Assembly: GCA_001687465.1 (NCBI GenBank)
Contig: LVLI01000319.1
Coordinates: 1-64,000, forward strand
Direction: 5' to 3'
From: Halocafeteria seosinensis
Lineage: Eukaryota
Length of the DNA: 64,000 nucleotides
Under the pieces are notes generated by a model, which was not told the DNA's origin, did no database searches, and saw only the letters and a program-made list of their open reading frames with translations. The position numbers were made by a program, and so were the translations under genes. This document shows positions 3,019 to 30,056 of the stretch, in pieces; the stretch's first letter is position 1, and the number at the start of each line of letters is the position of its first letter.

Positions 3019-4855
3019 ATGGCACAAGAGGAGAAGGAGCCCCGACGCAAGGTGGTAGCCAACTTGAACATTGGAGCTTTGGGGCATGTTGACTGCGGTA
3101 AGACAAGCTTAGTGAAATTACTTTCAACAGAACTCTCTACAGCAGCATTGGACAAACATCCGCAATCGCAAGAGAGAGGGATTACTTTGGACCTCGGCTT
3201 CTCGAGCTTCAGACTAGGAATTCTTCCTGAGCACTGGAAGAAACGATACACGGAACGGGGATGGAATTCCTCAGATTTCCCGGAAGATGTTCAGGTAACT
3301 CTGGTTGACTGTCCCGGTCATGCTTCATTGATCAGGAGCATTATAGGTGGTGCCCAAATCATTGATATGGTAAGAAGCTTCTGTTCCCAGTGGGTTTGCT
3401 TCGCATCTTGTAGAAAAATGGACTCGCCGTCTCACAGATGCTACTGGTGGTGGATATTACAAAGGGGATACAAACACAAACGGCTGAAGTAAGCACTCAA
3501 ACGCCAATAGTTGAGTCACCCGGGAATAATTGTATCAATGTTGGTTTTACCAGTGCCTCGTCATTGGAGAGATTGTTACTGACCATATGATTGTCGTCTT
3601 GAACAAAGTAGACCTCCTGGCAGCGGATGAAAAGGACTATAAAGTATGCTTCTGAAACTACAGTTACCTTATATTCTGTGCTTTATGCAGGCGTCTGACG
3701 TGGTTGCAGATAGAAAAAATGAAAAAACGAGTGCAGAAGGTGCTATCGAAAACAAAATTTCATAGCGCCCCTATCATTGTTGCCTCTGCAAGGCAGGAAG
3801 AATCGCGTCCAGCTATTTTAGAAGCTATTGCAGTGAATTCGCCGGTACCATCACGGGACTCCACCCGCCCGTTACTCTTTAATGTTGATCACTGTTTTTC
3901 CTTGAAGGGGAAGGGTACAATATTGACTGGCACTATTCTAGCGGGAAGACTAAACATCAACGATACAATTGAACTACCTCTGCAAGGAGAGATAAGGAAA
4001 GTGAAGTCGATGCAACAGTTTCACCAGTCCATTGACTCGGCACAACAGGGTGACAGAGTTGGCGTGTGCTGTAGCGGTCTAGATGCAAGCTCAATAGAAA
4101 GAGCTGTCGCTTGTGCACCAGGATACTTGAGGCCAGTTTGCTCTGCGGTGGCTCTTGTAAAAAAGATAAAGCATTACAAAGCTCAGGTAGGAACTGGAAG
4201 TAAATTTCACATTTCTGTAGGCCATGCGACCGTTCTTGGCACTGTTTCATTTTTCGGAGAGCCTTTTGAAGTGGGACCGGATGCCTCCAAATTTTCAAGT
4301 TTTTCGTCGCGGGATCCATTTGAAGGAATCCTATTCGACTATTCCAAGGAGTATCCTTATAGAGAGAGCCTCACTGAACCTGACGATGATGAATCTGGTT
4401 TTTCCTACTTCCAATGGAGTTATCTTCGTTTCGAGAGCCCCGTGCTGATACCCCGCTCGGGCTTGCTAATTGGGTCGAAATTAGATACGGACATCCGCAC
4501 AAAGACCTGTAGAATTGCGTTTTATGGGTATGTGGTTGAGAATTTGGAAGAAAAACACCCCGCTGTATTTAGAGAGAAACGGAGGTTAGGGAAGGTAGAT
4601 CGAGTCACCAAAGGTGGGGACGGGGCAGCAAGTTTGACAGAAATCATAGGAACTGGAATGTTTCACAAGGAGACGGATATGTCAAAGTTTATAGGAAAGC
4701 ATGTCTTCTGCGAGGAGGCAAACGCGGAATTGACGATCGATAACCCTTTTGGAAAATCGGGGAAGTTTAAGTGTTCTACGAGGGCTCCGTGTTCATTGGA
4801 TAAAGGATACACCTTGGTCCTGATGTTGAAGAAATACATAACTTTATCTGGCTAA
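3019..4855 (+). CDS. EEFSEC: Selenocysteine-specific translation elongation factor (introns approx. 3370-3438, 3489-3553, 3643-3708)
   Basis: NIGALGHVDCGKTSL, AALDKHPQSQERGITLDLGFSSF, LVDCPGHASLIRSIIGGAQIID, GIQTQTAECL, NKVD, VDHCFSLKGKGTILTGT, CRIAFYG and PFGKSGKFK are diagnostic eEFSec motifs. Confidence 0.95.
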
Positions 4856-5009: not shown

Positions 5010-7190
5010 TTAATAAAAATGTTTGGCATTGTTCTCAAGGTAGTTAATTCGCCGCCGTAGCCGGCCCATTTCCTCGTTCAGTCTCTGGGAATTCCAGGCT
5101 TCTTTCACCACAGCGTTGACATCTTCATCTTCATCGGGCGTTTCACCTACGAAATAAGAAGTGGTGTGGGTGAGGTTTTCTTTGCCTCTTGGCCCGGTAG
5201 GCACCGATTGCTGGCCCTTCCCGCCCTTGGCTCGGGCTACAGTGTCGTGGGGTGCTTTGGTGCCCGTTTGTAAAGGCTGTGCGTGTGCAGCATGCGATGC
5301 TCGATAGTATACTCCAGAGGGTATCCCAGAGGAATTGGATTTTGCTGCCCCATGTCCTTTTTTATGCTTCCTCTCCGTCGTACCTGAAGAACGGATTTCC
5401 GCGTTGCCATTTTCTTCCTTCAAACGATGAGGCTCTTCCTCGAAATCGACTGGGCGAACTGCTTCTCCGATTAGAGCCCACTGTGTTTCGAGCTGCCGCA
5501 GTGCCCTTCGTAGTTGAATAACGTCATTGGTGAATCCTTCCATGTCTAGTGCCCTCCGGCGTTTTAAATCAGCGTACCTGGTGAAGATGGCTAGAAAATC
5601 GTTGAAAACAACCTGAAATACGCTAAATGAGGATGTTCTTACTTCTTCCGTAAACTCTCGGCATGTTCACGGGTCTTACTCAGTTGGTCTTCGTAGTTTT
5701 GCTGAACCTGCTGATATTGGTCCTGTAACACCTTAAGATCATCATCGCGCTGCTGCGTTATACGATATGCCTCGGCTTTCAGGTTGGCTATTTCTCTTTC
5801 CGAAGATTCTTTAACTGCTTCCACTTCTTCCTGGGCAGATGCTCGGGCTCGTGCCAACTCTTCTCTCAACTGTTTTGGTGGGCAGGTATGAAGTAGAAGA
5901 ACAAACATGATCCCACTTTCTACGCACAATATAATGCAGGGGATCTGCAACATACCTGGTCCCTTTCATTTCGCAAGTCTCTGTTGGATTCCGCGGCTTC
6001 ACGAGTTTTCTCGTCGGCCTTCTGTTTGGCCTCCAACATATCCTTCGTTGCGTCTCGACTGCTTTCCCTTGCGGCTTTGAGATCTTTCTCCAACTGCTGA
6101 ACCCTTTCTTTGAGATCCTTTTCTCGATTTTCAGCTGCCTTGCGATTTCTTTCCCGGTCTTCCTCCCAGGCTTTTTTTCTTTGTTCAGATAGTTCATTTG
6201 CAGATTGCAACTGCTTGTCCAGAGCTTCCACCTTTTTAACGAGGGCTTCGGCTTGGTCGGAAGGCAAATATACGGTCCTTAGGATACGTTCCGACGTGTT
6301 GGTTTTGGTGGGATTCTGTTTCCCACTTGGTGGGTCACCATACACTCCTGCCGCCGTTTCCATGTGATGCTGCTTGGCTCCCTGCTTCCCATCATTATCA
6401 GTATTACCTCCTGATTGTAATTTCTCTGGCCTGCAATCTCTGAAAAAAGTGACTTCTTGAGTCACCGGCTGAGCCAAAGCCAGAAGATGCTGAATGCGCT
6501 TCCTGTCTTCAATCTCTTGCACCTTGAGCTGTTCATTTTCGGCCTGCAATTTGAGGACATGCTCGCGCTCATCATACAAATAACTATTGGCATCCGACAG
6601 TGCTTTCTGAAGCTCTTTTATCTGTATCGTTTCGGTTAGACCATTCAATTGTACAGAGCAGAGAAAGAGACCTCCGCAAAGTACGTACCTCTTCTTCTCG
6701 AACCTGCAACTGCCACCGTAGACGGTCGAGTTCTTCGTGTTGAACCTGCATAGGAGTAAAATAAAGTTATCCATAGCCTGATGAGAAACAAAATAAGCAC
6801 CTCTTTGCATACCTCGAGGTTCGAGAACCGTTCCAATAGCCGCTTCCTCTCTTGATCATACTGTTCACATCTATCACGGTAATACCTTAACAGATCCGCC
6901 TGAGCCGTGGTCGATTCTTCATCCCCTGGACGTCCTATAGCGACTTCACGGCCTTGTGTTTGTTCATGATATCTACTTGTCGTGGATGACGAGGACGTTG
7001 CGGGAGCTGGAGGAGCTCTGGCATTCGAGCCATGCGATGGCGTTGCGGTGGGTATCAACGACACGGAATTAGAAGAAAAAGACGAAGATGATGAGGACAT
7101 CTGATTATTGCTAGTATGCGTACGACTGCTTTTCATGGAGTAGCCGAAAGAGGAGCCGTTAGCTCCCGTCTCCTGCTGAAATCGCGACAT
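5010..7190 (-). CDS. CCDC77: Coiled-coil domain-containing protein 77-like (multi-exon)
   Basis: LLRYYRDRCEQYDQER, IKELQKALSDANSYLYDEREHVLKLQAENEQLKVQEIEDRKRIQHLLAL and RRALDMEGFTNDVIQLRRAL match the CCDC77 family; GT-AG introns join the ORF pieces. Confidence 0.85.
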
Positions 7191-7487
7191 TTATGCCTCC
7201 GTTTCTTGACCCCACATACATACACAGTTTATTCAACAATGGTCGTCAAAAGGAGAGTCCTTACATAAAAATTCATGGAGTCCCAAGCACTATGCCAACC
7301 AAGGAAGTGCCATGGCCCCATGGGCTGGCCGTTAAGGAATTTGTGAAGGTCCCCACGCGCTCGAATCGGCTCGATTCTAGTACATGGTAGTACAATGATT
7401 GTACAAAGTTGGACAGCACGAGTGTGTATGTCGTATTTATTCACTCTCTTTTACAAGACAGGAATTGGTGAACGCTCGATTTTGGAC

Positions 7488-8431
7488 ATGGAACAGGGGA
7501 CGAACGAAGCAAAGAAAGGGTATTTTGAATTGCGCTATTGCGTTTAGTTAGAGAGAGATTCAGGACGATGCGTCTAGAAGATTTTGAAATTGGTCGAGCC
7601 ATTGGGAAGGGCCGCTTTGGGAATGTATACCTGGCGAAACACATACCCTCGGGGGGCCGTCAAGTGGCACTTAAAGTGATGATGAAGCAGCCCATTATTG
7701 ATGCAGATTGTGTTCATCGTTTGAGAAATGAGGTGGAAATCCAATCAAGAATTTCCCATCCGAACTGCTTACGTTTATTCGGGTATTTTCATGACGAGAA
7801 CAAGGTCTATCTGGTGTTGGAGTACGCAAATGGAGGAAGTGTTAGTGACCACCTACGTAAACTGGGACGCTTTTCGGAGGAAATGGCTGCACGTCATGTA
7901 GCATCCGTGGCATCGGCGCTTGCTTATCTTCATGAACGGAATGTAATTCATAGAGACCTCAAACCAGAAAATTTGCTATACTTGGATGACAAGACCACGC
8001 CCATGATAGCGGACTTCGGCTGGTCCATACACGCGCCACCTCCGTTTGGAAGACGCAACACGTTTTGCGGAACTGTAGAATATCTACCGCCAGAAATGCT
8101 AGACGGGGAAGCTCATACTTATTCTGCAGATTCTTGGGCGCTAGGAATAATGGCATATGAGTTACTGTTTGGATATACTCCTTTCAGCGCTCCGGGTCAA
8201 GAGAAGACGGAAGCGGATTCCAGTGCATGGCAGAATACAACGATAGCCAACATACAAGAGTGCCAATACGGGTATTCCTCAACGGTGCCAATTTCTACGG
8301 ACGCCAAAGATTTCATCGATTCGATGCTGCAGAAGAATCCGAGCAACAGGATTCCAGTTGAGAGCGCTTTACATCACCCTTGGATTGCGTCGTTCATTGA
8401 TATGCAAGCATCCGAGGATCAGCCATCATGA
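7488..8431 (+). CDS. Aurora-family Ser/Thr kinase (possible short first exon 7488-7519; otherwise ATG at 7568)
   Basis: LEDFEIGRAIGKGRFGNVYLAK, VALKVM, EVEIQSRISHPNCLRLFGYFHD, HRDLKPENLL, ADFGWSIHAP, RRNTFCGTVEYLPPEM are typical of Aurora kinases. Confidence 0.92.
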
Positions 8432-8446
8432 AGTTATCGCATCATC

Positions 8447-11400
8447 TCACTTGCCTGTTCTGTCCATCTCTCCTTTCAGTAACTCAACGTGGGTTTCATG
8501 CGCGCCAATAATGTAGTATACTGGATCGAACAGCGGGTTCGCCCGCACCTCAAGTTGCTTTCCGGTCTGCTGCTTCGTGAAATCAGACGTCCCTTTCCCT
8601 CCGGGGTAGACTCCCACACTTTCCAACAAGGTCGTTGTTGTTTCAGTTTCTTTCATCTGTTTTGTCGAAGAAAGAATTTCGTCCTGCATCTGCTCGGTAA
8701 TGAGGTGCTCCCACTGCTCGGTGGATTCTTTCGAGGCTCGAGGATAAATTTCGGTCACGATACCAACGAATAGGTTAAGGACGANAACCGCCATAAGGAC
8801 ATAGAACATATAGAAGAACGTATACATCACGCGGGGTTGATACGTGGTGAGCCTATCAAATTCTCCCGCAAAACCTACCCCGAATAGAGAGTAGAAGGAA
8901 CGCAAGACTGAAGTGAACTCTGGGTTCTCAGTGCCAAAAGCAACATGGAACGATATCCCAAAAGTAAATATCAACATTGCCATTACGGACAAGTAGAGCA
9001 TTACGATGCGGTCTTGCCACGTCATCAAAAACGCTAGCAGCATTGGTCCCCAACCGGGTATCAACCTAAGGTACTGTACAAACCGGATGATCATCAACAA
9101 TACAGTTACCGCCAAGAGATCAGTTTCAAGCTCCAGTTTCGATGCAAGACCCCATAGTGAAGTAAAAGTGGACGTCTTCGCAACATCTATCCTTAGAGTA
9201 TCCCGTTCATTGGTGCTCGAAACGTCAAGGACTAAAATAGCCGAGAGCATTCCTGCAAGAAGGACCTCTAGCCAGTTCCACCCATTTAGAGCGGCACTCT
9301 TCAATCCACTGAAACTTAGATCCCGTGTCAGTATTAGTACCTGAATAGCCAACATAGCAACCAGAGTTGCTTGGAAGCTTCCCGAAGGAGCAAATCTGCC
9401 ATTAAAGGGACGAGCGGTCTTCAGGAGAATATCTGAACGGGATGAACCCGCTGAAGAAAAGTATGTCCCTAAACGGACACTAGCGAACGTATTGATGTTC
9501 GGGTTGTAAATCGTGAAGTCGACAGATGCAAATCGTGTACTCTTAGACATCCCTCCTTGCTCTACATAGAGAGCACGCTGCCTCCGGCTGGTCACATTTG
9601 CTGAGTCGAGATCGATCACGCTGACATCCTCGTCCTCTACGGGCTCCTTAAAGAAGAGATGGTGAACAGTCAGGAAGGATCCTTGAGAGTAATGCACTGA
9701 CGGTGCTAACGAGTTTCCTCTATACTCAGGAATACATCCTATCCATTGCGATCGAATAGAGCGCGGGTAAGAACAGTTTTGCATCGCTTCAGTATACAAC
9801 GCTAGGCGAATTGAGCCAATCAGAACATTACCTTCCGTAACTTCTGAGTAACCATACCCCGTATCGTAGAAAATAGGAATAACAGATTCATCGGAATTGT
9901 GTAACACATGCTGATTCATCCACATCCACCAAGACGAACGGTCTCGAACCTCTTCCTTATAGCTCCCGAAATGGTCGCGGAGCCACAAGCTCAGCTCCGC
10001 TACCGACCCACCATCGTAATCAGGTGAGATAGGGGTCATCATGATAAACAAAACTACAAGCACTAGCAAATGAACAATGAGTTTAAAGAATTGACTGATA
10101 GCGAAGTTCTGCCTTCCGGATTGTGTCTGCGGCGTTTCCTCTAGTAGGTCCAGCATACTTCTGCTGTGGTTTAAGTTCTCCTTAGATGTGGATACTGCCT
10201 GTTGCCTACGCTGCTCCAATAGTGCCACTTCTTTTTCAATGCTTCCAGTTCGCTGGCCTAAACCCTTCCTAATGTCAAACCGTCTCACTGTCCTATCATC
10301 GTCCTGCACCTCATCTGCAACTGTTGAACTACCCCCGGTTTCCGCGTTTGCGACGAGTTTCTTGTAGTACTCGATCACCTGAGCCGACAGAATAGACGAA
10401 AAATGGAGACTGTGACTGTCAACCAATCGGTATCGAGTCATAAATGTCAAAACTGATTCATCCATGGGCCTTAGTTGGTTTCTAGCAGCGTAGCTGCGGA
10501 CAACGTCTACGATACCTCGAAGCACTTTCACCTCGACAGAAGTACTGCGGCCCTCTTGGTTTGGTCGCTGATCATACCAAGATACAAGAGACTTGCTTAC
10601 ATCGTTAGGCTCAGTGTTAGCACTTCCCGACCATCCTCGTCTCAAGGCCCTAACAATACCTGGTGGATACTGCGCCGCCTCTTTCATTTCATTGACCTGT
10701 AGTGTTAATAACTTCCGATAGACTTCATGTTCCATCTTGTGCTGATACAACGCACGCTCGTACGGGCTGAGTAAGCTGTAGTCTTGTTTTGTCGGGTCAG
10801 CACCTCTTTCTATCAATAGCTTGGTAATCTCCGTGTTTCCAACATGGACAGCTACCGTCATCGGGCTGATCAAGACCATAGATTTGTTTTCACCTTGGAC
10901 ACTAAAGAGCTTCTGGATACCATACGAGTTCCGCCAGTTCTCTAAGTTCGGGTCTTTCGGCAATGCGCGCATCCAAATCTTAGCCGGAGTAAGAACGCAG
11001 GTGACGTCATTAGAATAATGATTGCGTTGACCAGATGGTTTCCACTCGTCATGTTCAAACTTTAACGCAGCTGCACGATCTTTTTCGACCACTGTGCTGC
11101 CTTCAGTCAAGTGTTTAGAAAACAAATGATTGAGCAAAGTATCACTGTGGTCTTGGGAGGTCCAGTCGTGAGATGAAAAGCCATGGAACCATGAAATATC
11201 CACTAGTTCTAACTGTTTCTTCTTGGAAGTGTCATAAAATAACGAAGCGCGCTGTCCACTAGTAGTGGGAGAAGTGCCTGAACTCAAGGGTGATTTTCCT
11301 CCCGGCTTCACTGTCTTCTGCATAGCGGCAAGCCACCTCTTCTTGGCACTATTAGTGTTGGTAGCGTCATCTTTCTGTGATGTCGAGTCAAAATCATCGC

Positions 11401-14400
11401 GGGACATCATATCGACTGCAGCATACTCAGCAAAGGCAGAGAACCTATCCAAAATACATTTAGCAGTGTTAATCTTTCCGGAGAAAGCGGCATAATGGAG
11501 AGCTGATAACCCTAGCCGGTCACGAGCATCACAATGGCTTCCATGACTAATAAGCAGCTCAACGATATTCTCGTTTCCTTGCATTGCAGCAATGCTGAGA
11601 AGAGCGGTACCATTTTCATCGGGGCTATTGGCTGACGCTCCTCTTGATAGCATCCACTCTGCCAACTCTGGGTATTCATAGAGCACTGCGTAGTACAAAG
11701 GTGAACGGCTTAAGCTATCTCGTAGTTTTAGAGCTTCCATAACCTGCTTGGTTTGCTTATCAAATAGTTTTTGCAAGTAATGGAAATTTCCCCGCGAAGA
11801 ACATATAAAAACCAGTGACTGCACCAAACCACGACGGAATAGTGGGATTTCTGCTTGCCTGTCGCGAAGAACCTCGGCTTCACCCGCGGCCAAATCTTTA
11901 TCAAGCCCCGTCATTTCCATGCCCTCTGCATCTCTATCCTTCTCGATGGTGTAACCCGTAACCAGCATTGTTTTCACCAACTGTGAAGCATTCTCTCTGT
12001 TCATCTCTTTCTCAGATTCACTCAGAAGTTCATATGGTACCAGCATTGGGGAAGTCTCAGCATTCTGATCCAAGTAGTGACTGCGAACAGGAGCATATGA
12101 GAAACCAGCAGATATTTTGCTTTCTGCCCACGTTTCATGCATGTTCTTTGATAAGAGCTCGACCACATTGACAAGTTCATCCGTGAGCTCAACATCACTT
12201 GTATCCACAGGTTCAGGGACATATTCGGACCCATCCGTGCTCATTGCCGCATCCTCTGTCTGTTTTCTGTTCAAAGGCTTACTGTCGTATCCGGGAGCAC
12301 TATCCCTGATGCTTTGATTCCTCTTTTCAAAGAAGACATTGTAACCTAGCGCTTTGATGACACACACACTTTGTTTTGCTGACTCTCGATCCCATTTTTT
12401 TTCTTCCTCGGAAAGCATCCAGTATGGCCTCAGACCTGGAAGACGGGATGGAGAACAGCACCCATCATAGCAACTTATGCGGTGGACGTGTTACTTTTAA
12501 CGTACCTGGATGAAGCTTTTTGGTATTATCGCGGACTTCCCCATATCTCCAGCCACCACGAATTTTCGATGCTCCCCATACTTCGTGGCTGTTACGAGCC
12601 AACTCTTCAACGAGTTGAAACAACTCAGAACCTTCGCTAAAATCTACATCATGAACCTGACTAATATCAATGGGCTGGGGGTGAAACCGATACCCTTGTC
12701 GCTCTCTTTCGTTGACCATGGTGATAGAACGGCAAGTCTTTCTCGAGCACTCACAGTGCCCCTCGACGAGACCCAGCCGGCGACATTGACTTAGCCAGGT
12801 GTCGTTGCACTGGAAGGCACAAACTAAGCAAATACGCTTTCCCGAAGAAGGGAGCTGGTACATATATTGCGTCAAAGGCAGCCGACCGGAAGTCATAGTA
12901 AAGGAACAGGTGCCAGTGTATTCAATCCTCGAGAGTAGTTCCAGGAACGCGTCGTCTAGTCTTACGTCATTTGCTGAATCCCGCAGCATAGTGTGGGCGG
13001 TCACGGCATCTCCTGACAGAAGAAGGAAATGTAAAAACTCCGAGGCATAGTCTCCACGGCATTCAAGGCACTGGAATCCAAGACGGCATAAAAACCTGGC
13101 ACAGGCGAAGTGCCTTTGAAGGATGGCAAAGTCCAAAGGAGTGTAATGACGCCCACGAATTTTCATTACGTAGGACTCATAATCTGCCTGATCGTCTACT
13201 AAGACAGGGATGCTGCTGGGAATCCCACTCCATGCAGCGATGTGTAAGTTCGAGGGTGTTAGGATAGATGTTTTTTCATCTACCATGGGTTTGCAGTGAT
13301 TCAACAGGAGTGGCATATATTTGCCCAAGATAGACCTCCATGGTATTAAGGACGCTATCTCACTACAGACGGAAAAGTGCACGGCATTCCAGCTCCACGT
13401 GTCAGATAAGACGAGTAACCGATATCTTCTTTCTAGAGACGGCTCCTCGAGAAGCAGATACTGAATGAGGTCCGCGTATCTCCTCAATGGCACCTTTCCT
13501 TCAGTTGCGAGAGGCGCACTAAAGGCTAGGGTTAGCGCACTGTGTCTCGTGACCTTTGCCTGGTAGCGCAGTACTTCGGCTGTGGCGATATCTAGTTTCG
13601 TGGCTGCCTTCAGAAGGAGAGTTGCCAGGGATATGTCGCCTCTTAAACAGGCGAGCATCATTGGCGAGAAGCCACAGCGAGAATCAGGAGTGTATAGCGT
13701 TCTTGATAGCAACCGTTTATGCTTGAGTACCATCTCTAGCAAAGACGATCTGCCCCGTTCACACGCCAAATGAACTAAGGATTTCCCGGAGCCTGTTCGC
13801 ACATTGGGGTCGATGTCGAACATACTGAAAAAACGGTGAGCTAGCGACTCCGACAACCATGTGATCGCAATATGAGCCATATTGAGCCCGTATGGTTCAA
13901 TGATGGTATCAACTTCCCGTGAAGTTAAATCTTCGCAAAGAATAGACAGCTTCGCCACCGTAGAGCACCTCTGAAATTCATATAAATAGTAAAAGAGTGA
14001 TGGTCGGGTTTCATGGCACTTCCGAGTGCTTTGAGACTGATATTTCAACCATGTTTTTAACGAGGATGTGCCTCCAAGCTCAGAAGCATCAATCGCCTCA
14101 AGTTCTTCTGAATCGGCGCTTTCCACAGGCAATCTTCCGAGGGTCTCCGACGCTGTGGACGATCGCCTACGATACATCGAGGATCTTCTGGGTGTCTTAC
14201 CGCTTGGGAAACCCAAATCCCCCGTCCCTTTGGCTGCGAGCGTTTTTAAAGTGTCCTCGGTAGAGACCCACTCGACATTTATCTCGGAAAGTTGCTCTAA
14301 CATGCTCGTGATGGCTTCGTCATTCTTTGGGCAGATACCGTCAGAAAACACGAGGGTGCGAAGGTTAGGAGCCACCCGCTGGATATCTTTGACGGCGGGC

Positions 14401-14957
14401 GCAAGGCATTTATCAGTAAGAATGCCTCCAATGTAACACTCTTTGACATCATGGTCGTGTAAAATCTTCTGCAAGGACGGTAAATCTCGTTCTGCTGACG
14501 ACACAAGTGACCACCCGGAGTCGGTAACTTTGATACGAGTGGACAGACGAAAATCAAGCGGGTGCACTTCGGTATCATCATGTAGCAATGCACCAGAGGA
14601 ACCAAACACACAATATGGCGTTTCGTTTCCCGCAGCCTCTGACGTTTTAAGTTTCCCGGCGTTGCGTTGCATATCGTTGAACCTAAAATCCTGGTGGTTG
14701 ATGGGATGGTCAATACCAAAGAAAAATACGTAGTCCCAATGTATCGCACGCCGAACGAGTGAAAGAAGCTGGATACACTCATGTGCATCTTCGATGGGGC
14801 GCCTTCCTCCTTCGACAAAGTCTTTCTGGAAACAAGCACAGGGAGATTGAATCATGGGTAGTCGGACTCCTCGCAGACTTTTCACACTTACCTGCAAATT
14901 GAGCAGACAAAGTGCCCTGACGTTCTCCGAAGGTTGCGGAGGCGGGACATCCCCCAT
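8447..14957 (-). CDS. Multidomain polycystin/TRPP-type cation channel: nicotinamidase-like domain + ankyrin repeats + Cys-rich Zn-finger-like segment + RyR repeat pair + ankyrin repeats + PKD channel (PKDRR-like); introns approx. 14826-14891 and 12436-12505
   Basis: ORFs 14987-12465 and 12418-8447 splice in frame to give KKLHPGLRPYWMLSEEEKKWDR, which completes RyR repeat 1. RyR repeat 2 is YVPEPVDTSDVEL...LSKNMHETWA...MLVPYELLSESEKEMNR. Ankyrin motifs are present (G-T/S-A/P-LH-AA-G type). The polycystin TOP domain shows TRFASVDFTIYNPNINTF, followed by NGWNWLE, pore FGTENPEFTSVLRSFYSLF and S6 LNLFVGIV. One N base at 8785. Confidence 0.9.
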
Positions 14958-16155
14958 TTTCCCCTTGTGGAAGCGTTGTAGACGCAAACACAGACAATAT
15001 TAGCTAGGCTGCAAATTCCAATACGGGAAAGATCCCTACCGGGACAGAAGCCAGTTCTCGCCGCCGCTAGTGCTGGTCGTTCGCACGCGCCTCTTTGGGT
15101 CTTTGCAGGCCGAGCAAATACACTCTTTTACACGATTTCCCAGTTCGTTGATCAGTGAGTGCCCAAACAGACTTGTGTGTATGCATCAACCGGATAGCGC
15201 GGGAGGAACCAAAATCGCAACGAAGCTTTTGCTCTCAAATATGAGGCCACCAAGCAACAAACACACGCTTTGGGAGAAACGAGTTGCAAATGTAGGCAGA
15301 GTGCGTCTTGTTTCTGTGTTGTAGGCGCTCTGTTTGCGGGCATAACAAACACAACAAGGTGCCCTTTCCTTTTTTGTGTGGGTCGCGCCTGTCGGCCTTG
15401 GTCGCAACAGGAAGCGCCTGCACATGGCATTCGCTGGTGTGTCCACAGCTAGTTGACTGCGCCAGCTATGCACGCATAGATCGTGGCACAAGAAGCGCAT
15501 AATCTAAAACATCGGTAATTATGCTATTCTCATATCCATTGCCTTCCAGTGGCGAGTTGCCAGTCCCCGCATCCGCTCATTTGTTCACTGTCCAGACATA
15601 CAATGATACGAATTACGAAGCGAATTCGTTTCATAGCATGCATCTGGTAGATGCGCTCTTCCATACATATGAAGGGTGCCGTTCCGGCTCGTGTCCTATG
15701 GTCCATGGAAGTGGATGCATACAGGTCACAAGTGGCAGCTTCCAACAGGCATTGCCGTTCAGACCACTTTCCTGTTACCATCCATATTGAACTCTGCCAA
15801 TTGGCATCATCATGTGGACACCGTGGTTGCGAGCGTCCTAGAGGCATTCAGATAGTTCCTTCCGAGGCGATGCCACCACTGGCGCGTAGACACGCATGTC
15901 AGGAGATCTTCCTTCTGCACCAACTTTTGCAGGGAAAAAGTAAAGTACAAGTTTAATGGTTCCGTCAGTTCGATTTTTCAGCATTTGCCGTACGGGTTTC
16001 CTTATTAGCAGTACCTACTAAAGGTAAGCATTTGTGAATTAGACTTTGTGAAGTTGGCTAACTTTCGCTGCTGGAAGACTGTGCAATTCAATGACATACA
16101 GTATTTGTGGAGCTATACTCATACTGACGCCTTGCTCAGGATAGTTCGCATAGTC

Positions 16156-19100
16156 ATGGGCAGCCAATGCCGTCAAATTGGAAGGTATCATCATCTTCTA
16201 AAACAGGCTCTGGTGGATCCAGGTACGTAGACTCTGTTGTCAAGAAGTCGATGAAGTTTTCCACGACTCTTACATGGTAGCAAGGATACTGTCTACACAT
16301 TTTGTCCCATTTTGTTTCTGTATCAGGCTATAAAAGAGCTGTGCTGGTTGATCTTCCCTATGGATGCGGAAAGAGATCTGCAACCCTGGATAGGGTGCTA
16401 AGTCGAATTGGCCACTCAACTTCGGGACGACGTATCGGGGAATCTGACGTAGCATCTCGTACTGCCATTGTCTCGAACTCTTTCATATCACAATGGTTTC
16501 AAGATCGACTGATGGAGCACGCAGGCTGGGCGGGTATGGAAGTGCGCACAGGAAGTCTTCCGATGATACTGTTGCAACTTATGCACGACAGCGTATTTCA
16601 AGCCGTATTTGAACAAGGACCGTTTCCTCAGACCCTGTCTTCCACAGACGCCCAATTGACTATGCATAGGCATCTAAGTGAAATCTCACCTAATTTGAAT
16701 GCCAATTGGCAGTTGTCAACAGACAAGCTCGCCAAGGAGTTGTATTGGCATTTTTCGCGATTGCAGTGGCATGGGGTAGAGCCGTCTGATTACTTGGCCT
16801 ACACTGCGCAAACTTCAGTGAATGACATGACTGTAGGGCAACACAAACGGTTAGCATACGGGTATGCAAAGTGGAAGCAGATCAAAGAAGACAACAATTG
16901 GATAGAGTATTCTGATGTATGTAAATGGGTGAGCAGGGCGATCCGCGACACACCGGAAGCAAAGACTCTGCTGCTGGGAGAAGTGTCTTCATGGGTTTTT
17001 TACGACGTACAAGATCTGCCGGTGTCAGCATTGCAGTTCATAGACTCCTTAATTGAGGGAACAGATAAAAGTACCTTTGAAATTGCAGCTGTGGGGAATA
17101 GTAAAGCGACAGTCTCCCATAAGAATAGTGCAGATTTATGTCTTGCTGATATAGCAGACTTGTTTCGGAAGAACTTTGCAAGGGAAGATATAACGATGAT
17201 AGATAAAACTAGCCTGCCGAAGAATGACTCTGTGTCACCGACAGGGCTGAAATATGTTGCTAATTCAATAGCGGACGAGGCCTCTGTTGAGTATGCCAAC
17301 GCGTGGCGTCTTGTGGACGATGCTCGGGCCTTTAAGCGGCTGAGGGTGGAAATAGATGGAAATGAGGCGTATATAAAGTCAGTGATGGAGTACATAGAGT
17401 ACCCCTCCGCCATAGAAGAGCTGTACGCTATTCCGGGTGCAATCTTGGAGAAGTTGCATGGAGTTGAACCTGATTGCTCTTTCCGGGTCAAGGTGATTGC
17501 CAAGTCTCAAGGAGATGCGGAATTCATTGCCGAGCGTCTACAAAAAAACGTAGACCAAGATAATACCCTTAAAGCAGTAGTGGAGTGTGATGGCATGCAA
17601 GACATTCAAGAGTTTCCTATTACGCAGTTGATCGGGAGTTTCATCGAATTGATGGCGTCTCCTCGGATGGAATTACGCAAGGATGCTTTCACACGTTGTA
17701 TGCTAAGCTTTCTGGAGATCGCACACCTCATTGAAAATGCATCCTCGGATGACCATGATGAAGAGCTTATACAGTCTTATATAAAAGCAGGATTAATTAA
17801 TAAAGACTTCTTCAACTCATTGGAAAATGCTGATGGTCATAAGAAACTGAGCAAGTTTGTCGGAGCTTTACATAGTTCTTGGGAACGTCGCATGACAACG
17901 GAGCCTGCAGTAAATATAAACAGTATGCTTAAAGAAAGCGGGCTTCTTGAGCGCCTGCTGTCACCGCAAGTACAGCTTGAAACCCAATCAGCGGAGGTAA
18001 CAGCATTCCTACTTCAGAAAATCCAAGACACTGTGAAAGTTTCTTCTCGGGGCGATTACATCGGAGCAAAGTATGAAGCGGCGGATGCGGCCCTTAAGAA
18101 CCTACTGATAATCAAACCTCGAGTACCATCGGCTGGTGACGTTTCTCCGGAAGGTGAAAGGACAAACAAAGTGTTCGTCACTTCCCTTCGAGAACATGGA
18201 GCTTCGGAGTTCTCCGATTGCGATTGGTTGTTTATTTGTCAAATGTCTGATCAAAATTGGCCAGGAAATAGGTATCCTGCATATGCTCCAATACCTTGGC
18301 AACTTATTACCATCAAATCTGATGGCGTAGAAAAAACAGCGGGAGGCGCCGCCCGCACTCGCACACACCACGTGGCAGCTGAACGTCGCAGATTGGCGAA
18401 GTTTGTATCGTCGGCTCGAAAAGGTGTCGTCTTTTCTAAAGGAAACACAACCGATGAAACTCGTCATAATGATAACAGCAAGGGGCTTTTGGGAACTATG
18501 AAACTTTCGGGAGGGCCGAAACGCGCCTCTGTGAAAAACACGTTTCCTCGCAGGAGCCGTCTTATAGACTGCCTGTTCACCGAGAACAGCGAGCAACTTG
18601 TAGGCGGCCCCTCTGTCAATACGGCTGCTACTGGTATATTGGTGAACGATGACAGCAAGCTTATATGTGCAAATCCAACTCCGGTTAATATTGATTATAT
18701 ATCGTTTTCCCAGCTCTCGGAATATCTCTCATGTCCCTACAAGTACTATCTCAAACGAATCGCTGGAGCAGATAGTAACGCAACGGAGGCTATGCAAAGG
18801 GGCACAGCTCTTCACAAACTATCGGCTGCCTCAAGTACATGGCTTCGTGACTCTGTTTTAGACAAATTGGGTGTAATAACGCTTCCATTTTTCAGTCAGC
18901 TGCAGAATGTGGTTCCTGTGGAAGCTCCGAAGGAATCTGTGGAGGAAGTTATGACGAAGACTTGGGAGGACCTCGTTGGGATGCTTGTGGAGGAAGATGA
19001 GCCACTTAGTGACTTCATCTCTAATAATGCCTTAAACCGTAAGAATAGATTGGATGAATGGATAGCCGAAACACGATGGGAACGGTTTGATAGCGAAGAA

Positions 19101-19699
19101 GCGGCGACTTCCCCACTAGTTCCTCTGTACATTGAGCAGCCATTCGAGACAAAGCTACCTTTAGGTACGGGGCAGGAAGTGCCCGTAGTAGGAATCTTCG
19201 ATAGAGTAGATGTACCGGTAGGGATGCTATACCTTTGGGCACATAGCGACAAAGTTCAAGACGAGGCGCTTGCTTCGCATTTGTCGATTATCGAGCTCAA
19301 AAGTGGAGAGAGCTGGAAGCAACAGGTGAGGTCATCGGCTTTGTTGCCGTTTGAGGATGATGCAAATATGCCGACTAATGTTTTATTATGCTTTCTTGCG
19401 TATGTATAACATACATGCAGGTGACAAATTCATGGCAGCCACCATTGTACTTTGCGGCCTTCTCGAAAATTTTCGGTCAGGCACCTCACGATTTGGTCTT
19501 GCAAAGAATCGAAACAGGAGAAGCTCGCTCTATCGAAAGGGCTACATTACAGAGTAATAGTGCTGAGCTAGTAAGACGACCACTTATGCAAGCTTTAGAT
19601 GGTATCCAACACAAGCGGTTTGACCCCACTCCCGAGGCATGGAAATGTCGGTTGTGTACAGTAAAAAACAGTTGTCCGCACTCTGCCGCAACTGACTAA
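16156..19699 (+). CDS. UvrD/AddAB/AdnAB-like protein: degenerate SF1 helicase + C-terminal Fe-S PD-(D/E)XK (RecB/AddB/Cas4-type) nuclease; start uncertain, introns approx. 16223-16327 and 19326-19420
   Basis: Relic helicase motifs: VLVDLPYGCGKRS, FYDVQD, AVGN, VFVTSLREHGASEF, AERRRLAKFVSSARK. Nuclease motifs: ISFSQLSEYLSCPYKYYL, RGTALH, IEQPF, GIFDRVD, IIELKSG, QPPLY, CRLCTVKNSC. Confidence 0.85.
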
Positions 19700-25408: not shown

Positions 25409-28400
25409 ATGAGGATGAGGGTGGGACGATACCCCTATGGATTCATCACGCTCTTTGTAGTGCTGGTGCTGTGCTCCTGTCTCCCAGCATCGCCGGTCGA
25501 AGGGTCCGGCCCATCGTTCCGCAGAGGTACGTTTCCGTCAGCAACACGTGGTTGCTAATTGCTTCTGTCATGTTCCCGATCTGTGCTTTCCAGACCAAGT
25601 GAGAGATGGTTCGCGCGATCGCCGGCTGGAAGGAGAACATAAGCAACTACGGTTCGGTGATGATGGTGTTTCCATCCGCCTTCCAGCAATGCGACAACAG
25701 GTCTATTACTACTACAAGTTTCCTAATACAACTGCTTATTGGGAAGGTAATGCCGAGCCCGGGGTCGAACTATTTTATGAGAACGCCGCATCTGCTTTTG
25801 AGAACGTTGACCTCGGTTGTGGACTAACATTCCACGAAGGAATTGTGGAGGATGCTTTCATCGAAGGTTTCGTTACCAAGGAATGCACGGACGACATTCC
25901 CCTACTGTTGGCAGCCCACAGAGACGGGGTTATCGCAAAAAAGGAAGTCATTATTAAGAAAGAAGAAGAATCTGAGGGATGTGTGTGGAGGTTTGATGGT
26001 TCCAAACAAGTGGACTGGAACAGTAGACCTGCTTGGATGTCTTGGGAGCCTCCCTCCACGCAAGACTTGGTGGTATTCTCTGGTGTTGAACACCTCACCA
26101 GTATCGCAAGCGGCGAGTTCGCTGTTGCTGGAGGGGTTGTGTTTGAATGGGACGATAGTCAGAGCAAACCGCAACTTCACATTGAGCCGGATTCGGATTT
26201 CTTTATTTTCGGTATCTCGAAGGAAAAATATCTTGATTGGAAGGAATGTGATGGACTTAACCAACCAAGTCCGACACCATCGGCCGCGCCTTACACTGTG
26301 CCATTTGAGGAAAACGTCGAAGACGAACCAGCTTTCCTCAATGAGTGGGTCCAAGGCAATCTTAGTCTGAGCTTCGCGGGCGGTGACATTGGTGCACCAC
26401 CTGCTGGAAGTGAATTGACTCTTATGATTACTAGTGTCCCAGGCAAGACTTGGAGACTTCGATCCACCAGGGATTGGATCGATCTTGAGTACGATATCGG
26501 ATCAGGTGATGACAACGTAACCGTTTCTCTCCTGGACACGGAAAGGACGACTGAACCTCAACTGTATGAAGGCTCGATCGTCATCGTGATGGATGACTTT
26601 TCTCGGATTGTTGACAGCATCGAGGTGAGGATGGAAATCGTTCGGCCGATTTTACAGATTTCTCCAGGTACACTCACACAGGTCCTTTTTACGGGTACGA
26701 ACGGCACCACAGGCTTGGTTTTATCGAATGATGCGCCAGAGCACGACTCGGACGACGAGTTGCTAGAAGATTTGTCCACGCTACGTTTTACCGTCCATTT
26801 GGAACAACTTACCCCCGAGAACGATTCATGGGCTTTTTTTGGCTCGATTGAGGCTGACGACGGGCAAACGCCTTGTGAAGTGTTGCCTGATGGTGGCCGA
26901 AATTGTAACCTTAAACCTCAGAGAGGTTTGCGACTCGATATGGAAGCACTGGCGGCATCGTTACCCCGTGGAGATTATGAAGCAAGAGTTGTCATTGTTG
27001 CCGAAACATATAGTGAGGACTTTGTAGTCAATTGGATAGTTCGCGTCGCCCGTTTCAATGTTTGTCCGGATTCGTTTTCCGCGAGGTTGGGTCCTGGGGA
27101 AGTTGATTCGCGAACTTTTAGTATCTCTAATTTATCCCCATCGGAGCCCTTGCCAATGGCCATAGACTTAAGTGGCACTGCCCCTTGGATATCCGTTTTG
27201 TCCTTCCCGCATACTTTGCAGTCTGGTGGTGTACCCCACTTTGCCACCATCTCGATTAAGAACATCCCGGATTTTTCGGGTGCGAGTGAATTGCAGACCA
27301 CTTTCGATCTGATCAGTGGCGTGTCTTCTAACAAATCGAGTATTGGCGTGATTGACGGTGAGTCTCTGGAGGAGTTTGCGGACATCAGTAGACGAACCGT
27401 CAATGTTACCCTTATAAGAACGAGCGGCACTATAGATGCCCAAAGATCATCCCTCCGTCTTAATGTGACTCAAAGAGAGTCTTCCGTTACTGCGACTGCA
27501 GAAATCTTTCTGCGGGACAGCATTCAGCAGCTTGTACCTCTGGGTGGAGCTATTCCGGGCGATCTGGAAGTCTCTAGCACAATCTGGGGTAGAGAGTCAT
27601 CCGCTGATCTTGAGGTAGATCTAAGGATCGACGACGACACTGAAGGCACTGTTATCGTTACCATTCGCCCAGATCGAGTAGGCATGGTGGAGGTTAGTGT
27701 CAAGTATGCGGGCCAACATATAGATGGTAGCCCAATGTTCAGAGCTGTTGAGGAAGCCATATGTTCTGACCCGACTCAAATCCAAACGCGTTCCAGGATG
27801 GAATGTCATTGTAAGGCGGGGTACGAGCCGCCGGAAGATGATCAAAGTACGGAGGAGAGCTGCGTGAAATGCGAACAAGGGTATATGAAGTCAGCTGCTG
27901 GTAATGACCAATGCGTGCCGTGTGGAGAAGACGAATTCTCTTGGGAAGGGGCAACAAGCTGCACTGCTTGTCCTCCGGCAGGTGCAGTATGTGATGATGG
28001 TACCCTCCGATTGAGAGATGGTTACTGGAGGGAAGAAGACATCGGTATAAAAGACATTGACGAAAGTACCATACTCCACGAATGCGATAATCAGGATATC
28101 TGCCTCGTCGCGCGCAACGAGTCGGGCCGACCAGCTCAGTGTGCCGAGGGACACAAGGGCGTCTTGTGTGACACGTGCGAACCCAATTATGCCAAGAGTG
28201 GTTCCGTTTGTTTGAAGTGTGGTGATCGGAGCACGAACATTGCCATAACCGTGCTCCTTATTCTCGCATTCGCACTGGTTGTGATGTTCATTGCTTTAAA
28301 GAAAAAGGACCAGAAGGACCCCAAGACTTCGCCAGCAACTCTCGCTCGTCTTACGGTAAACTGGCTACAAGCATGTGCAATGTTAAGCGAATTCACAATT

Positions 28401-30056
28401 CAGGTGTTTGACGAAGTGCAAACGATGCTCAGTATTGGCGAGTCTGCGAATGGCGGATCGGCAATCTCTTTACACACCGTGCAATGCGTTCTGCAGTTTG
28501 ATTACTTCACAAAATTCTATATCATCTTCAGTATACCGGTGATAGCCGTCATTTTACCATCTCTGATTGTGGGGATCCTCCTATTGAGAGACAAAATTTT
28601 AGGTACCGATCCATTCAAAGCTGTGGCAGCGGAGGACACTGACGAAAAGACGGCGGAGCCCGAGTCGCCTTTCCAGAAATATTCTAACGCAGCCATGTCA
28701 GCCATTGTGGCGCTTCAGTTTTTATCCTACAATACAGTGTTAAAGTTTATTGTAAGTTCGTGGGATTTCTATCCGTACGAAATAAACGGATCGCGGCATC
28801 TTCGTTCCGACTTTTCGGTAACGGAGGACGATCCTCAATACAAGGTTGTTTTTGCCCTATCGTTGATTGGGACCGTATTCTACATTATAGGCATCCCACT
28901 ACTGGGTTTCCGAGTTTTGACAAACAACCGGCGAAAACTCTCAAATATCGTAGTCAGGAGGAGGTTTGGATTTTTATACGAGGGGTACCGTCGAGACCGA
29001 TTTCTGTTTGTGGTATGGGAAATAATAGTGCTCCTGCGGAAGACTAGCTTAACAATGATATCCATTTTGATCAACAACGGGCTTCTGCAATTGAGCAGTG
29101 GTATTTTTGTGTTGTTCGTCGCCATGGTGCTTCAAGAATCAGTACGCCCGTACGTGTCCAAGACAGCCAATCGTCTTGAACTAGCAAGTCTTTGTGTGTT
29201 ACTGTCGACGGCTGTTGCGGCACTGATCAACTATTCTACAACTGTCAGGGATGACGAAGGGGCACAGTTTGGGGTAGCCGTTACCGTCATTATCATGAAC
29301 GCGTGTATTGCAGTGGCCTTCGCAGTCACACTTGTTATTTTATCGAGTAAGAAAGTGATGGAGTTCTGGGCGGTGCTGGTGGAAAAGTGCAACAAGAAGA
29401 CAAAGGAATGGAGGGAAGCTATATCTGGCCAGATAGTTAGCGAGGAAATATCGGACTCAGTAGACCGGCTTATCAAAGGAGAGCGAGTGGAGACGAAGAC
29501 GCTTGTCAATGTCTTCAGTGGGAGTCTTGGTGCCCTACGGCAACTTTTAGCCGACAAAGAAGCGATACCTGCGCAGGCGAGATCGATCTTGGAGGAAACA
29601 GCTGAAATTTTAGAGCAACAACAGTCAACACACTCCCAGAAAGCTCGGCGAGTGTCGCTTGAAACAGCGCAAAAGCAAGGATGGTTACAGAATACTGAGG
29701 AGGAGACGGCAGGCAGCATGTTTGCAAACCCTCTGACCCAACGAACTAAGAAGACAGCTAAGAGCCCTGAGGAGAAGAGCGAGCTGGCGCAAGCGCGATG
29801 GCGCAAGATCAGGGTATACGTCAAGATGTTCGGAGCTATGGGTGTATTGTCTCGCGGCGAACAAAAAGCGCTTGAGAGAGAGCAACAAGAACAAAAAGTT
29901 CTTGCCGCGTCTGGGAAGCGAGTTCCTGCTGGAGATCGCCGTAGTACTTTTAGACCCGAGCCAAAGAGGAAGAGCTCGGCTGTATCCAGCCGCTCGTTAT
30001 TGGGCCGTCCAAGTCGCGCCTTCCAGCCTCAGGCTAGCAATAGGCGGCAGTTCTGA
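25409..30056 (+). CDS. Large signal-peptide, multi-pass membrane receptor-like protein (Ig/BACON-like beta modules, filamin-like domain, GCC2/GCC3-type Cys-rich repeats, multiple TM helices); intron approx. 25527-25593
   Basis: Signal-like FITLFVVLVLCSC; GTVIVTIRPDRVGMVEVSVKYAGQHIDGSP (filamin-like); CVKCEQGY...CVPCGEDEF...CTACPPAGAVC; CAEGHKGVLCDTCEPNY; TM region with RRRFGFLYEGYRR...WEIIVLLRK and RPY...NRLE, typical of a large protist membrane-protein family. Confidence 0.85.

Follow-up and report, generated by a model that had tools for sequence, protein, structure and literature searches.

A polycystin-type channel gene of Halocafeteria seosinensis that carries a nicotinamidase-like domain, predicted to be inactive, and a pair of RyR repeats

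TRPM2 is the textbook channel that made an enzyme of nicotinamide adenine dinucleotide (NAD) metabolites into a ligand sensor. Depending on the lineage, its NUDT9-like domain is described as active or dead, with a dead version being used by human TRPM2 (PMC6461439). Nicotinamide is reported to be an agonist of the nematode OSM-9/OCR-4 and fly Nan-Iav TRPV channels (PMC5064019). In the Entamoeba protein ERM-BP, the substitutions D12A and K150A were reported to abolish turnover while NAD+ binding was kept, and C198A to abolish both (PMC6207428, PMC7379229). PKDRRs are reported to carry a RyR pair near the C-terminus, after the channel (PMC4820453, PMC7399828); Table S3 of PMC7399828 gives no ankyrin or hydrolase domain for PKDRR homologs, and nicotinamidase, isochorismatase and hydrolase are unmentioned in the main texts of PMC4820453 and PMC7399828. 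In the PKDRR papers, PKDRRs and ryanodine receptors are taken as the only eukaryotic channels with RyR domains. Here, a gene of Halocafeteria seosinensis was analyzed that lies on the minus strand, with a coding span of 14957-8447, in a stretch of 64,000 nucleotides (nt) of contig LVLI01000319.1 (assembly GCA_001687465.1, positions 1 to 64,000; referred to as the window). From N- to C-terminus, it encodes a nicotinamidase-like domain, ankyrins, a Cys-rich segment, a RyR repeat pair, ankyrins and a six-helix TRPP channel.

The fusion is a single real spliced gene. Its three exons, all on the minus strand, are located at 14892-14957 (exon 1; ATG at 14957, 22 codons, strand beta-1 of the nicotinamidase fold), 12506-14825 (exon 2) and 8447-12435 (exon 3, through the stop codon), and the spliced coding sequence of 6375 nt has one stop and encodes 2124 residues. 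Intron 1 (14826-14891; 66 nt, GT..AG) is in frame, and intron 2 (12436-12505; 70 nt, GT..AG) lies within RyR repeat 1, which is complete only once this intron is removed. Before splicing, the long minus-strand frames are 12465-14999 and 8447-12490. The spliced product was identical at 2123 of 2124 positions to the transcript-derived EukProt record P0004, which is labeled 'complete' and lacks intron 1; the sole mismatch is the window's single N, at position 8785. Moreover, contigs of four runs of one study (X1 to X4) were compared over 7000-16500. The X2, X3 and X4 contigs skip introns 1 and 2 and, in a neighbor gene, a third intron; the contigs of X1 cover the region and are unspliced throughout. 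X2 to X4 were taken as RNA solely from the skipping of these three GT-AG introns, none of the runs being recorded as RNA. The X2 contig that spans the gene is alone no proof of one transcript, because it continues across a convergent kinase gene. The spliced contigs end 5' of the ATG at 15352, 15359 and 15428 in the three runs, a weak hint at a probable 5' untranslated region (14958-15428, minus strand).

An ortholog from a metagenome is split into two open reading frames, P0006 and P0005, at the same point as intron 2; each has a longest contig of 27,343 bases, from which both probably lie on one contig, and the ortholog shows 66% identity protein-wide. The alternative of two separate genes, split at 12436-12505, fails because intron 2 joins both open reading frames inside RyR repeat 1, and read-through of two genes was rejected. 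The single spliced gene proposed in an earlier note on this DNA, which had been made from the letters alone, was confirmed by the match to P0004 and the intron-skipping contigs of X2, X3 and X4, as were the coordinates of its in-frame 66-nt intron, which was skipped in three runs.

The N-terminal domain (amino acids (aa) 14-212; 14256-14918, minus strand) is a nicotinamidase homolog with a predicted isochorismatase fold. Its match to PF00857 was weak (E=0.12, under the Pfam cut-off). NCBIfam model PRK11609 matched residues 14-185 with E=1.9e-8 and 34 bits, compared to a naming cut-off of 174 for this model, and all five matches of a PDB search with a two-sequence profile were nicotinamidase-family entries. 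Of 154 loci selected by motif, 89 natural nicotinamidases were made into a profile, against which the domain scored 58.6 bits. The maximum of 1000 shuffles was 7.6 (reversed sequence, -1.6); a chance match of the motifs was rejected. The Atlas model of the ortholog's domain had template modeling scores of 0.77 and 0.80 to nicotinamidase clusters. A fold model of the single sequence reached a predicted local distance difference test (pLDDT) score of 41 and gave no Foldseek match. With an 87-row alignment, AlphaFold2 yielded a pLDDT of 86 and the nine top Foldseek rows were all nicotinamidases, a result that is partly circular because the alignment contained 85 prokaryotic and viral nicotinamidases. 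The nicotinamidase-derived domain claimed in the earlier note was supported by PRK11609, the PDB matches, the shuffle test and the predicted fold; the order of the PncA motifs was read correctly there, while most catalytic residues within them turned out to be replaced.

Nicotinamidases hold their substrate with metal ligands and a pocket Trp. For PncA, the triad Asp8-Lys96-Cys138 and the metal ligands 49, 51, 57 and 71 are given, and activity was reduced in D8N (PMC5605632). In order to assign these positions, a reference set of 154 frames was used, of which 136 covered the profile and were counted. The catalytic Asp and the metal Asp, each present in 136 of 136 reference nicotinamidases, are replaced in the seosinensis protein by Asn20 (codon 14898-14900, minus strand, in exon 1) and Ile60, respectively. 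The catalytic Lys (135 of 136) is replaced by Thr118, which the model placed on the Lys-bearing strand. Only the catalytic Cys (133 of 136) is left of the triad, as Cys162. At the metal site, His62 is retained, the second His is changed to Tyr93, and the pocket Trp is lost. Since the reference set was selected by the pattern WPxHC-x-QG, the invariance of the columns of this pattern is by construction. The residue mapping was the same with a second aligner (MAFFT), and the ortholog showed the same losses wherever covered. The pocket positions His62, His66, Tyr93, Trp127, Lys161 and Cys162 are identical in the ortholog, Arg119, Lys121 and Lys161 are common to both copies, and the domain core is 68% identical, as compared to 27-59% in the linkers, which speaks for constraint on the domain. 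The N-terminal domain is, as predicted from these residues, probably inactive as an enzyme, and the pocket of the seosinensis copy is among the most eroded of its family.

This family was revealed by a profile search. Word-seeded searches had returned only the gene itself and one ortholog, and the reading that the fusion is confined to two species was overturned when the profile search yielded 109 matches among 1.84 billion representatives. Besides P0006, 16 matches of at least 487 aa were scanned with Pfam. P0047, P0053, P0055 and P0074 show an isochorismatase domain (over the cut-off), ankyrins, two RyR repeats, ankyrins and a channel, i.e., the seosinensis order; P0037 is a partial form of the fusion, and a channel domain was absent in 8 of the 16. 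In total, six further full-length fusions, of which four have the RyR pair, plus fragments were obtained. The relatives stem from MMETSP, EukProt, Logan and ENA; their identity to the seosinensis protein amounts to 22-27% for the nicotinamidase-like domain and 23-32% for the channel. Two JGI metagenome scans returned no relative among 592 and 210 candidate stretches, respectively. The fusion as judged by these sequences recurs as a small, apparently undescribed family. A full-text literature search, in which few subscription papers were covered, found no description of a nicotinamidase-RyR-polycystin architecture, in agreement with the earlier note, to which no description of a nicotinamidase-TRPP fusion was known.

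A tree of 131 domains (106 from the profile matches and 25 drawn from the 89) was calculated with FastTree; it is midpoint-rooted with long branches and constrains the order of events only loosely. One clade of 16 of the 131 leaves (support 0.985) united all nine channel-type domains with P0038 and six short proteins. The latter scored higher against full-length members than against the prokaryotic set and are probably fragments. All 16 clade members lack the catalytic Lys. It was found in none of the nine channel-type domains, as compared to 86 of the 108 other domain rows, the clade's seven non-channel members among them. The metal His was present in 101 of these 108 rows, an additional basis for the His-to-Tyr and Trp changes described above. 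In P0047, P0053, P0074, P0037 and P0038, the Asp, the Asp-His-His, the Trp, the Phe, the Tyr and the Cys are intact and Lys-to-Ala is the sole change; the triad positions of P0010 are Asp, Ala and Cys. In the sub-clade of the seosinensis gene, P0055, P0036 and P0044, the Asp and the metal Asp are gone too. One targeted loss, that of the Lys, with the pocket intact would be the pattern expected of an enzyme-derived ligand binder. The term 'chanzyme-like' of the earlier note, in the sense of an active enzyme, was not supported: the catalytic Asp, the Lys and two metal ligands are replaced, and none of the nine channel-type domains has the Lys.

Three further proteins were observed among the scanned matches. 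P0013 (848 aa; tool label EP00004_Rigifila_ramosa) combines ankyrins and Ion_trans with a C-terminal nicotinamidase that has the full Asp-Lys-Cys triad and metal site. Its domain falls outside the 16-member clade, and P0013 is a candidate for a separate ankyrin-channel fusion and a true nicotinamidase chanzyme; as one transcript-assembly record, it could be a chimera. In P0038 (1061 aa), a cyclic-nucleotide-binding domain precedes the Lys-to-Ala nicotinamidase domain of the 16-member clade, and its sequence may represent the first part of a longer channel gene, in which a third sensor would be present. P0007 (964 aa) contains four tandem isochorismatase domains, all without the catalytic Lys and Cys.

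The RyR pair, overlooked in the earlier note as a possible sensor, is a candidate nucleotide pocket by its residues. Its best PDB match is RyR1 Repeat12. RyR3 Repeat12 is reported to bind adenine nucleotides at its two Trp, weakly when alone (PMC12627627). According to a preprint, phage RyR-domain proteins bind or cleave 2'/3' cyclic ADP-ribose (cADPR) via H75, W78, H100 and D117 of RyDEP, and six of eight phage homologs bound cADPR (PMC13232231). RyR repeat 1 (aa 733-828; 12338-12695, minus strand) has H/W/H/D at 0/+3/+25/+42 (His769/Trp772/His794/Asp811), i.e., the spacing of RyDEP. RyR repeat 2 (aa 863-962; 11936-12235, minus strand) keeps two of the four residues (His895/Trp898), with Ser924/Asn941 at the remaining pocket positions. 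This likeness refers to the residue spacing as published and not to an alignment with the RyDEP sequence, RyDEP not being among the phage matches listed; both phage RyR proteins examined had the same H/W/H/D spacing. Repeats 1 and 2 are 86% and 91% identical to the ortholog (pore, 95%) and, apart from the pore and S1, are the best-conserved part. When viral sequences were scanned with RyR repeat 2, one marginal 17-residue match was obtained, which was not used. Two genes downstream of an Arthrobacter phage RyR-domain gene (L156:236-893), a PnuC-like nicotinamide riboside transporter is encoded, which is in line with a link of RyR domains to NAD.

The channel (aa 1571-2035; 8717-10111, minus strand) has six hydrophobic segments, the first two of which (S1 and S2) are separated by a loop of about 215 aa (TOP domain). 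On the 2124-aa protein, Pfam returned RyR twice (E=8e-53), ankyrins, PKD_channel (6.8e-10, over the cut-off) and Polycystin_dom, confirming the Ank-RyR-RyR-Ank-TRPP order of the earlier note. The six transmembrane segments with a pore loop are those of TRPP channels. PF20519 (Polycystin_dom; E=5e-5) scored 23.4 bits against a cut-off of 23.6 and was over the cut-off in P0002. In the PDB, the membrane part matched PKD2L1 and PKD2 best (E 2e-6 to 1e-4), and the top Atlas clusters for the channel region were polycystin. The filter G-E-F-D (8852-8869, minus strand) is acidic and aligns with G-D-F-D of PKD2/PKD2L1; the filter sequence differs among the family relatives. No EF-hand was detected by Pfam. 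By analogy to the family, the protein is presumably a tetrameric cation channel with a cytosolic N-terminus. The classification as 'PKDRR-type' in the earlier note did not hold: the RyR pair precedes the channel, no ankyrin or hydrolase domain is listed for PKDRRs in Table S3 of PMC7399828, and PKDRR membership was rejected, the pair being on the opposite side of the channel. In a search with the channel region, 2 of 5760 candidates matched, neither of them a PKDRR. Since the pair stands before the channel here and after it in PKDRRs, RyR repeats and a polycystin pore are combined in this gene in a second manner.

The remaining segments of the protein are also encoded on the minus strand. The N-terminal ankyrin region spans approximately aa 335-640 (12972-13889; limits approximate, Pfam Ank matches in P0001), a second ankyrin block lies at aa 1031-1130 (11432-11731; Pfam), and a further ankyrin-like repeat, recognized by sequence and aligned in P0055 too, at about aa 1318-1361 (10739-10870). 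A Cys/His-rich segment, putatively zinc-binding and common to the family, is located at aa 660-722 (12726-12914). It has 8 Cys and 1 His in common with the ortholog; in the seosinensis copy it gave no Pfam or PDB match, and one CxxC pair is lost relative to the family alignment. We take this segment to resemble a UBR-box zinc finger, which is a hint only, zf-UBR matching with E=0.3 in P0044 alone of four relatives.

Regulation of the seosinensis channel by NAD-related metabolites that act at the nicotinamidase-like pocket, the RyR pocket or both is tentatively preferred, at somewhat less than an even chance. The sensing of NAD metabolites put forward in the earlier note was kept as the best reading, backed by the pockets of the relatives. 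In the proposed mechanism, a nicotinamidase would have been fused to a channel in an ancestor of the family and lost only the catalytic Lys, after which the former enzyme would bind nicotinamide or NAD+. For the RyR pair, the ligand would be an adenine nucleotide, either ADP-ribose, cyclic ADP-ribose, ADP or ATP, and the ankyrin stacks would relay the change to the gate. The nicotinamidase-derived domain and the RyR pair would thus be cytosolic sensors tuning cation flow, a TRPM2-like design and not a chanzyme. The family-level case is stronger than that for the seosinensis copy, the ligand of which may differ from nicotinamide or be lost because the pocket is remodeled (metal site and Trp lost); here, the effective input may be the RyR pocket. 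In an unlikely extension of this mechanism, the channel would read both halves of NAD+ cleavage, the disarmed nicotinamidase taking nicotinamide (or NAD+) and the RyR pair ADP-ribose or a cyclic isomer of it; the polycystin pore would then be opened by the activity of an NADase or TIR. If true, the channel would be a protist effector of NAD-based signaling and a tractable system for ligands of ryanodine-receptor Repeat12 domains.

Several observations speak against regulation by NAD-related metabolites. First, the seosinensis copy has retained only one of its three main metal ligands and has lost the pocket Trp, and its domain identity to the ortholog (68%) is close to the protein-wide 66%, which is equally compatible with a structural role. 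Second, the retained Cys is not a family constant, because it is replaced by Ala in P0055 and by Glu in P0036 and P0044. The latter two relatives have the same layout but no RyR pair. Third, H/W/H/D is not specific for ADP-ribose, being close to the PF02026 consensus, and an Asp at the fourth RyR position is confined to the seosinensis protein, the ortholog and P0055, with Asn in P0047, P0053, P0037 and RyR1. Nucleotides alone were reported to give no isothermal titration calorimetry signal with RyR1 Repeat12 (PMC12627627). Fourth, no NAD-related gene was found among the 19 long neighboring open reading frames scanned. Finally, the enzyme cycle of Nematostella (sea-anemone) TRPM2 was described as uncoupled from gating (PMC6461439).

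These points bear on four other explanations. The nicotinamidase-like domain could be a ligand-free structural or protein-binding module for assembly or tethering, with gating by tension, voltage, Ca2+ or a partner. This was considered rather unlikely: the pocket is badly eroded in the seosinensis copy, and more so in P0055, P0036 and P0044, its conservation is average for the protein, and the ankyrins, the RyR repeats and the Cys-rich segment are each capable of serving as interaction modules (for RyR, as stated in PMC4820453), but the near-intact pockets with a single targeted Lys loss in five relatives and the six pocket-region residues identical in the ortholog are at odds with it. Alternatively, only the RyR pair might sense a nucleotide (ATP/ADP or ADP-ribose signals), the seosinensis nicotinamidase-like domain being a relic of an ancestral input. 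The high conservation of the repeats, the full RyDEP residue set in repeat 1 and the cADPR binding of phage homologs (PMC13232231) would fit, but the two relatives without the pair retain the nicotinamidase-like domain and the pocket residues are near the family consensus, which makes this explanation improbable. Covalent sensing of oxidants or electrophiles by the unpartnered Cys162 is very unlikely; this residue is the only one of the triad kept, is found in both orthologs and adjoins the conserved Lys161, but the Cys is lost in three of nine channel-type domains. Lastly, an active amidase, i.e., a true chanzyme, has only a small chance: Cys162 and His62 are retained, and Lys121 or Lys161 together with Asp61 could compensate for the lost residues, since both Lys and an acid at 61 (Asp/Glu) are common to the ortholog and adjoin the lost positions, but the triad Asp-to-Asn change lowers PncA activity (PMC5605632), Lys-to-Ala abolishes ERM-BP turnover (PMC6207428), and Thr118 is set in the Lys-bearing strand.

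The neighbors of the channel gene are unrelated housekeeping genes. A protein kinase gene (7529-8431, plus strand), presumably Aurora-like as judged by eye, ends 15 bases from the channel stop codon, tail to tail; spliced contigs cross both genes, which suggests overlapping 3' ends. A second channel-like gene of the window (25461-30056, plus strand) is a 1531-aa frame with a filamin repeat and a PF06011 TRP-type membrane domain. Divergent from the channel gene, a 1042-aa frame with a C-terminal PD-(D/E)XK nuclease domain is located at 16281-19409 (plus strand), and a 104-nt intron immediately upstream of it was skipped. The window also encodes a selenocysteine-specific elongation factor (3656-4855, plus strand), and the organism therefore probably uses selenocysteine.

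The family, in which both the enzyme and the TRP subfamily are different ones, looks like a separate instance of the TRPM2 principle and displays its steps: an intact pocket minus one Lys, then deeper decay. A fused pocket would offer a defined, purifiable nicotinamide-binding site on a TRP channel. In addition, a Repeat12-like pair is carried by a small channel that is neither a ryanodine receptor nor a PKDRR; because the subunit has about 2100 aa, cADPR-type action via a RyR domain becomes testable by patch clamp.

In comparison with known systems, the seosinensis protein shares with TRPM2 that a TRP channel bears a domain from an enzyme of NAD metabolites; unlike TRPM2, it is a TRPP with an isochorismatase fold, an N-terminal position of the domain, an added RyR pair and ankyrins, and a putative ligand. 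As in oomycete PKDRRs, a polycystin-type pore and a tandem RyR pair are found in a single chain, but the PKDRR order is PKD-R-R in 1.0-1.5 k aa as a rule, whereas the seosinensis pair (aa 733-962) lies about 600 aa ahead of the channel. The membrane part, the TOP-type S1-S2 loop and the aligned filter resemble the TRPP2 subfamily (PKD2, PKD2L1), from which the multidomain N-terminus of 1570 aa and the lack of a Pfam EF-hand set it apart. Fold and motif order are those of PncA, Pnc1 and Naam; unlike in these enzymes, the catalytic Asp, the Lys, the metal Asp, the second metal His and the pocket Trp are replaced and the domain is fused to a channel. The pair best matches RyR1 Repeat12, and repeat 1 has the residue spacing of RyDEP (PF02026), but it is carried on a TRPP channel and its ligand is putative. 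ERM-BP, as described, likewise uses a nicotinamidase domain as a sensor: it senses NAD+ and changes conformation, and binding survives loss of the Asp or Lys. It differs in being a transcription factor that is catalytically active as the wild type, and the kinship is that of the same family only.

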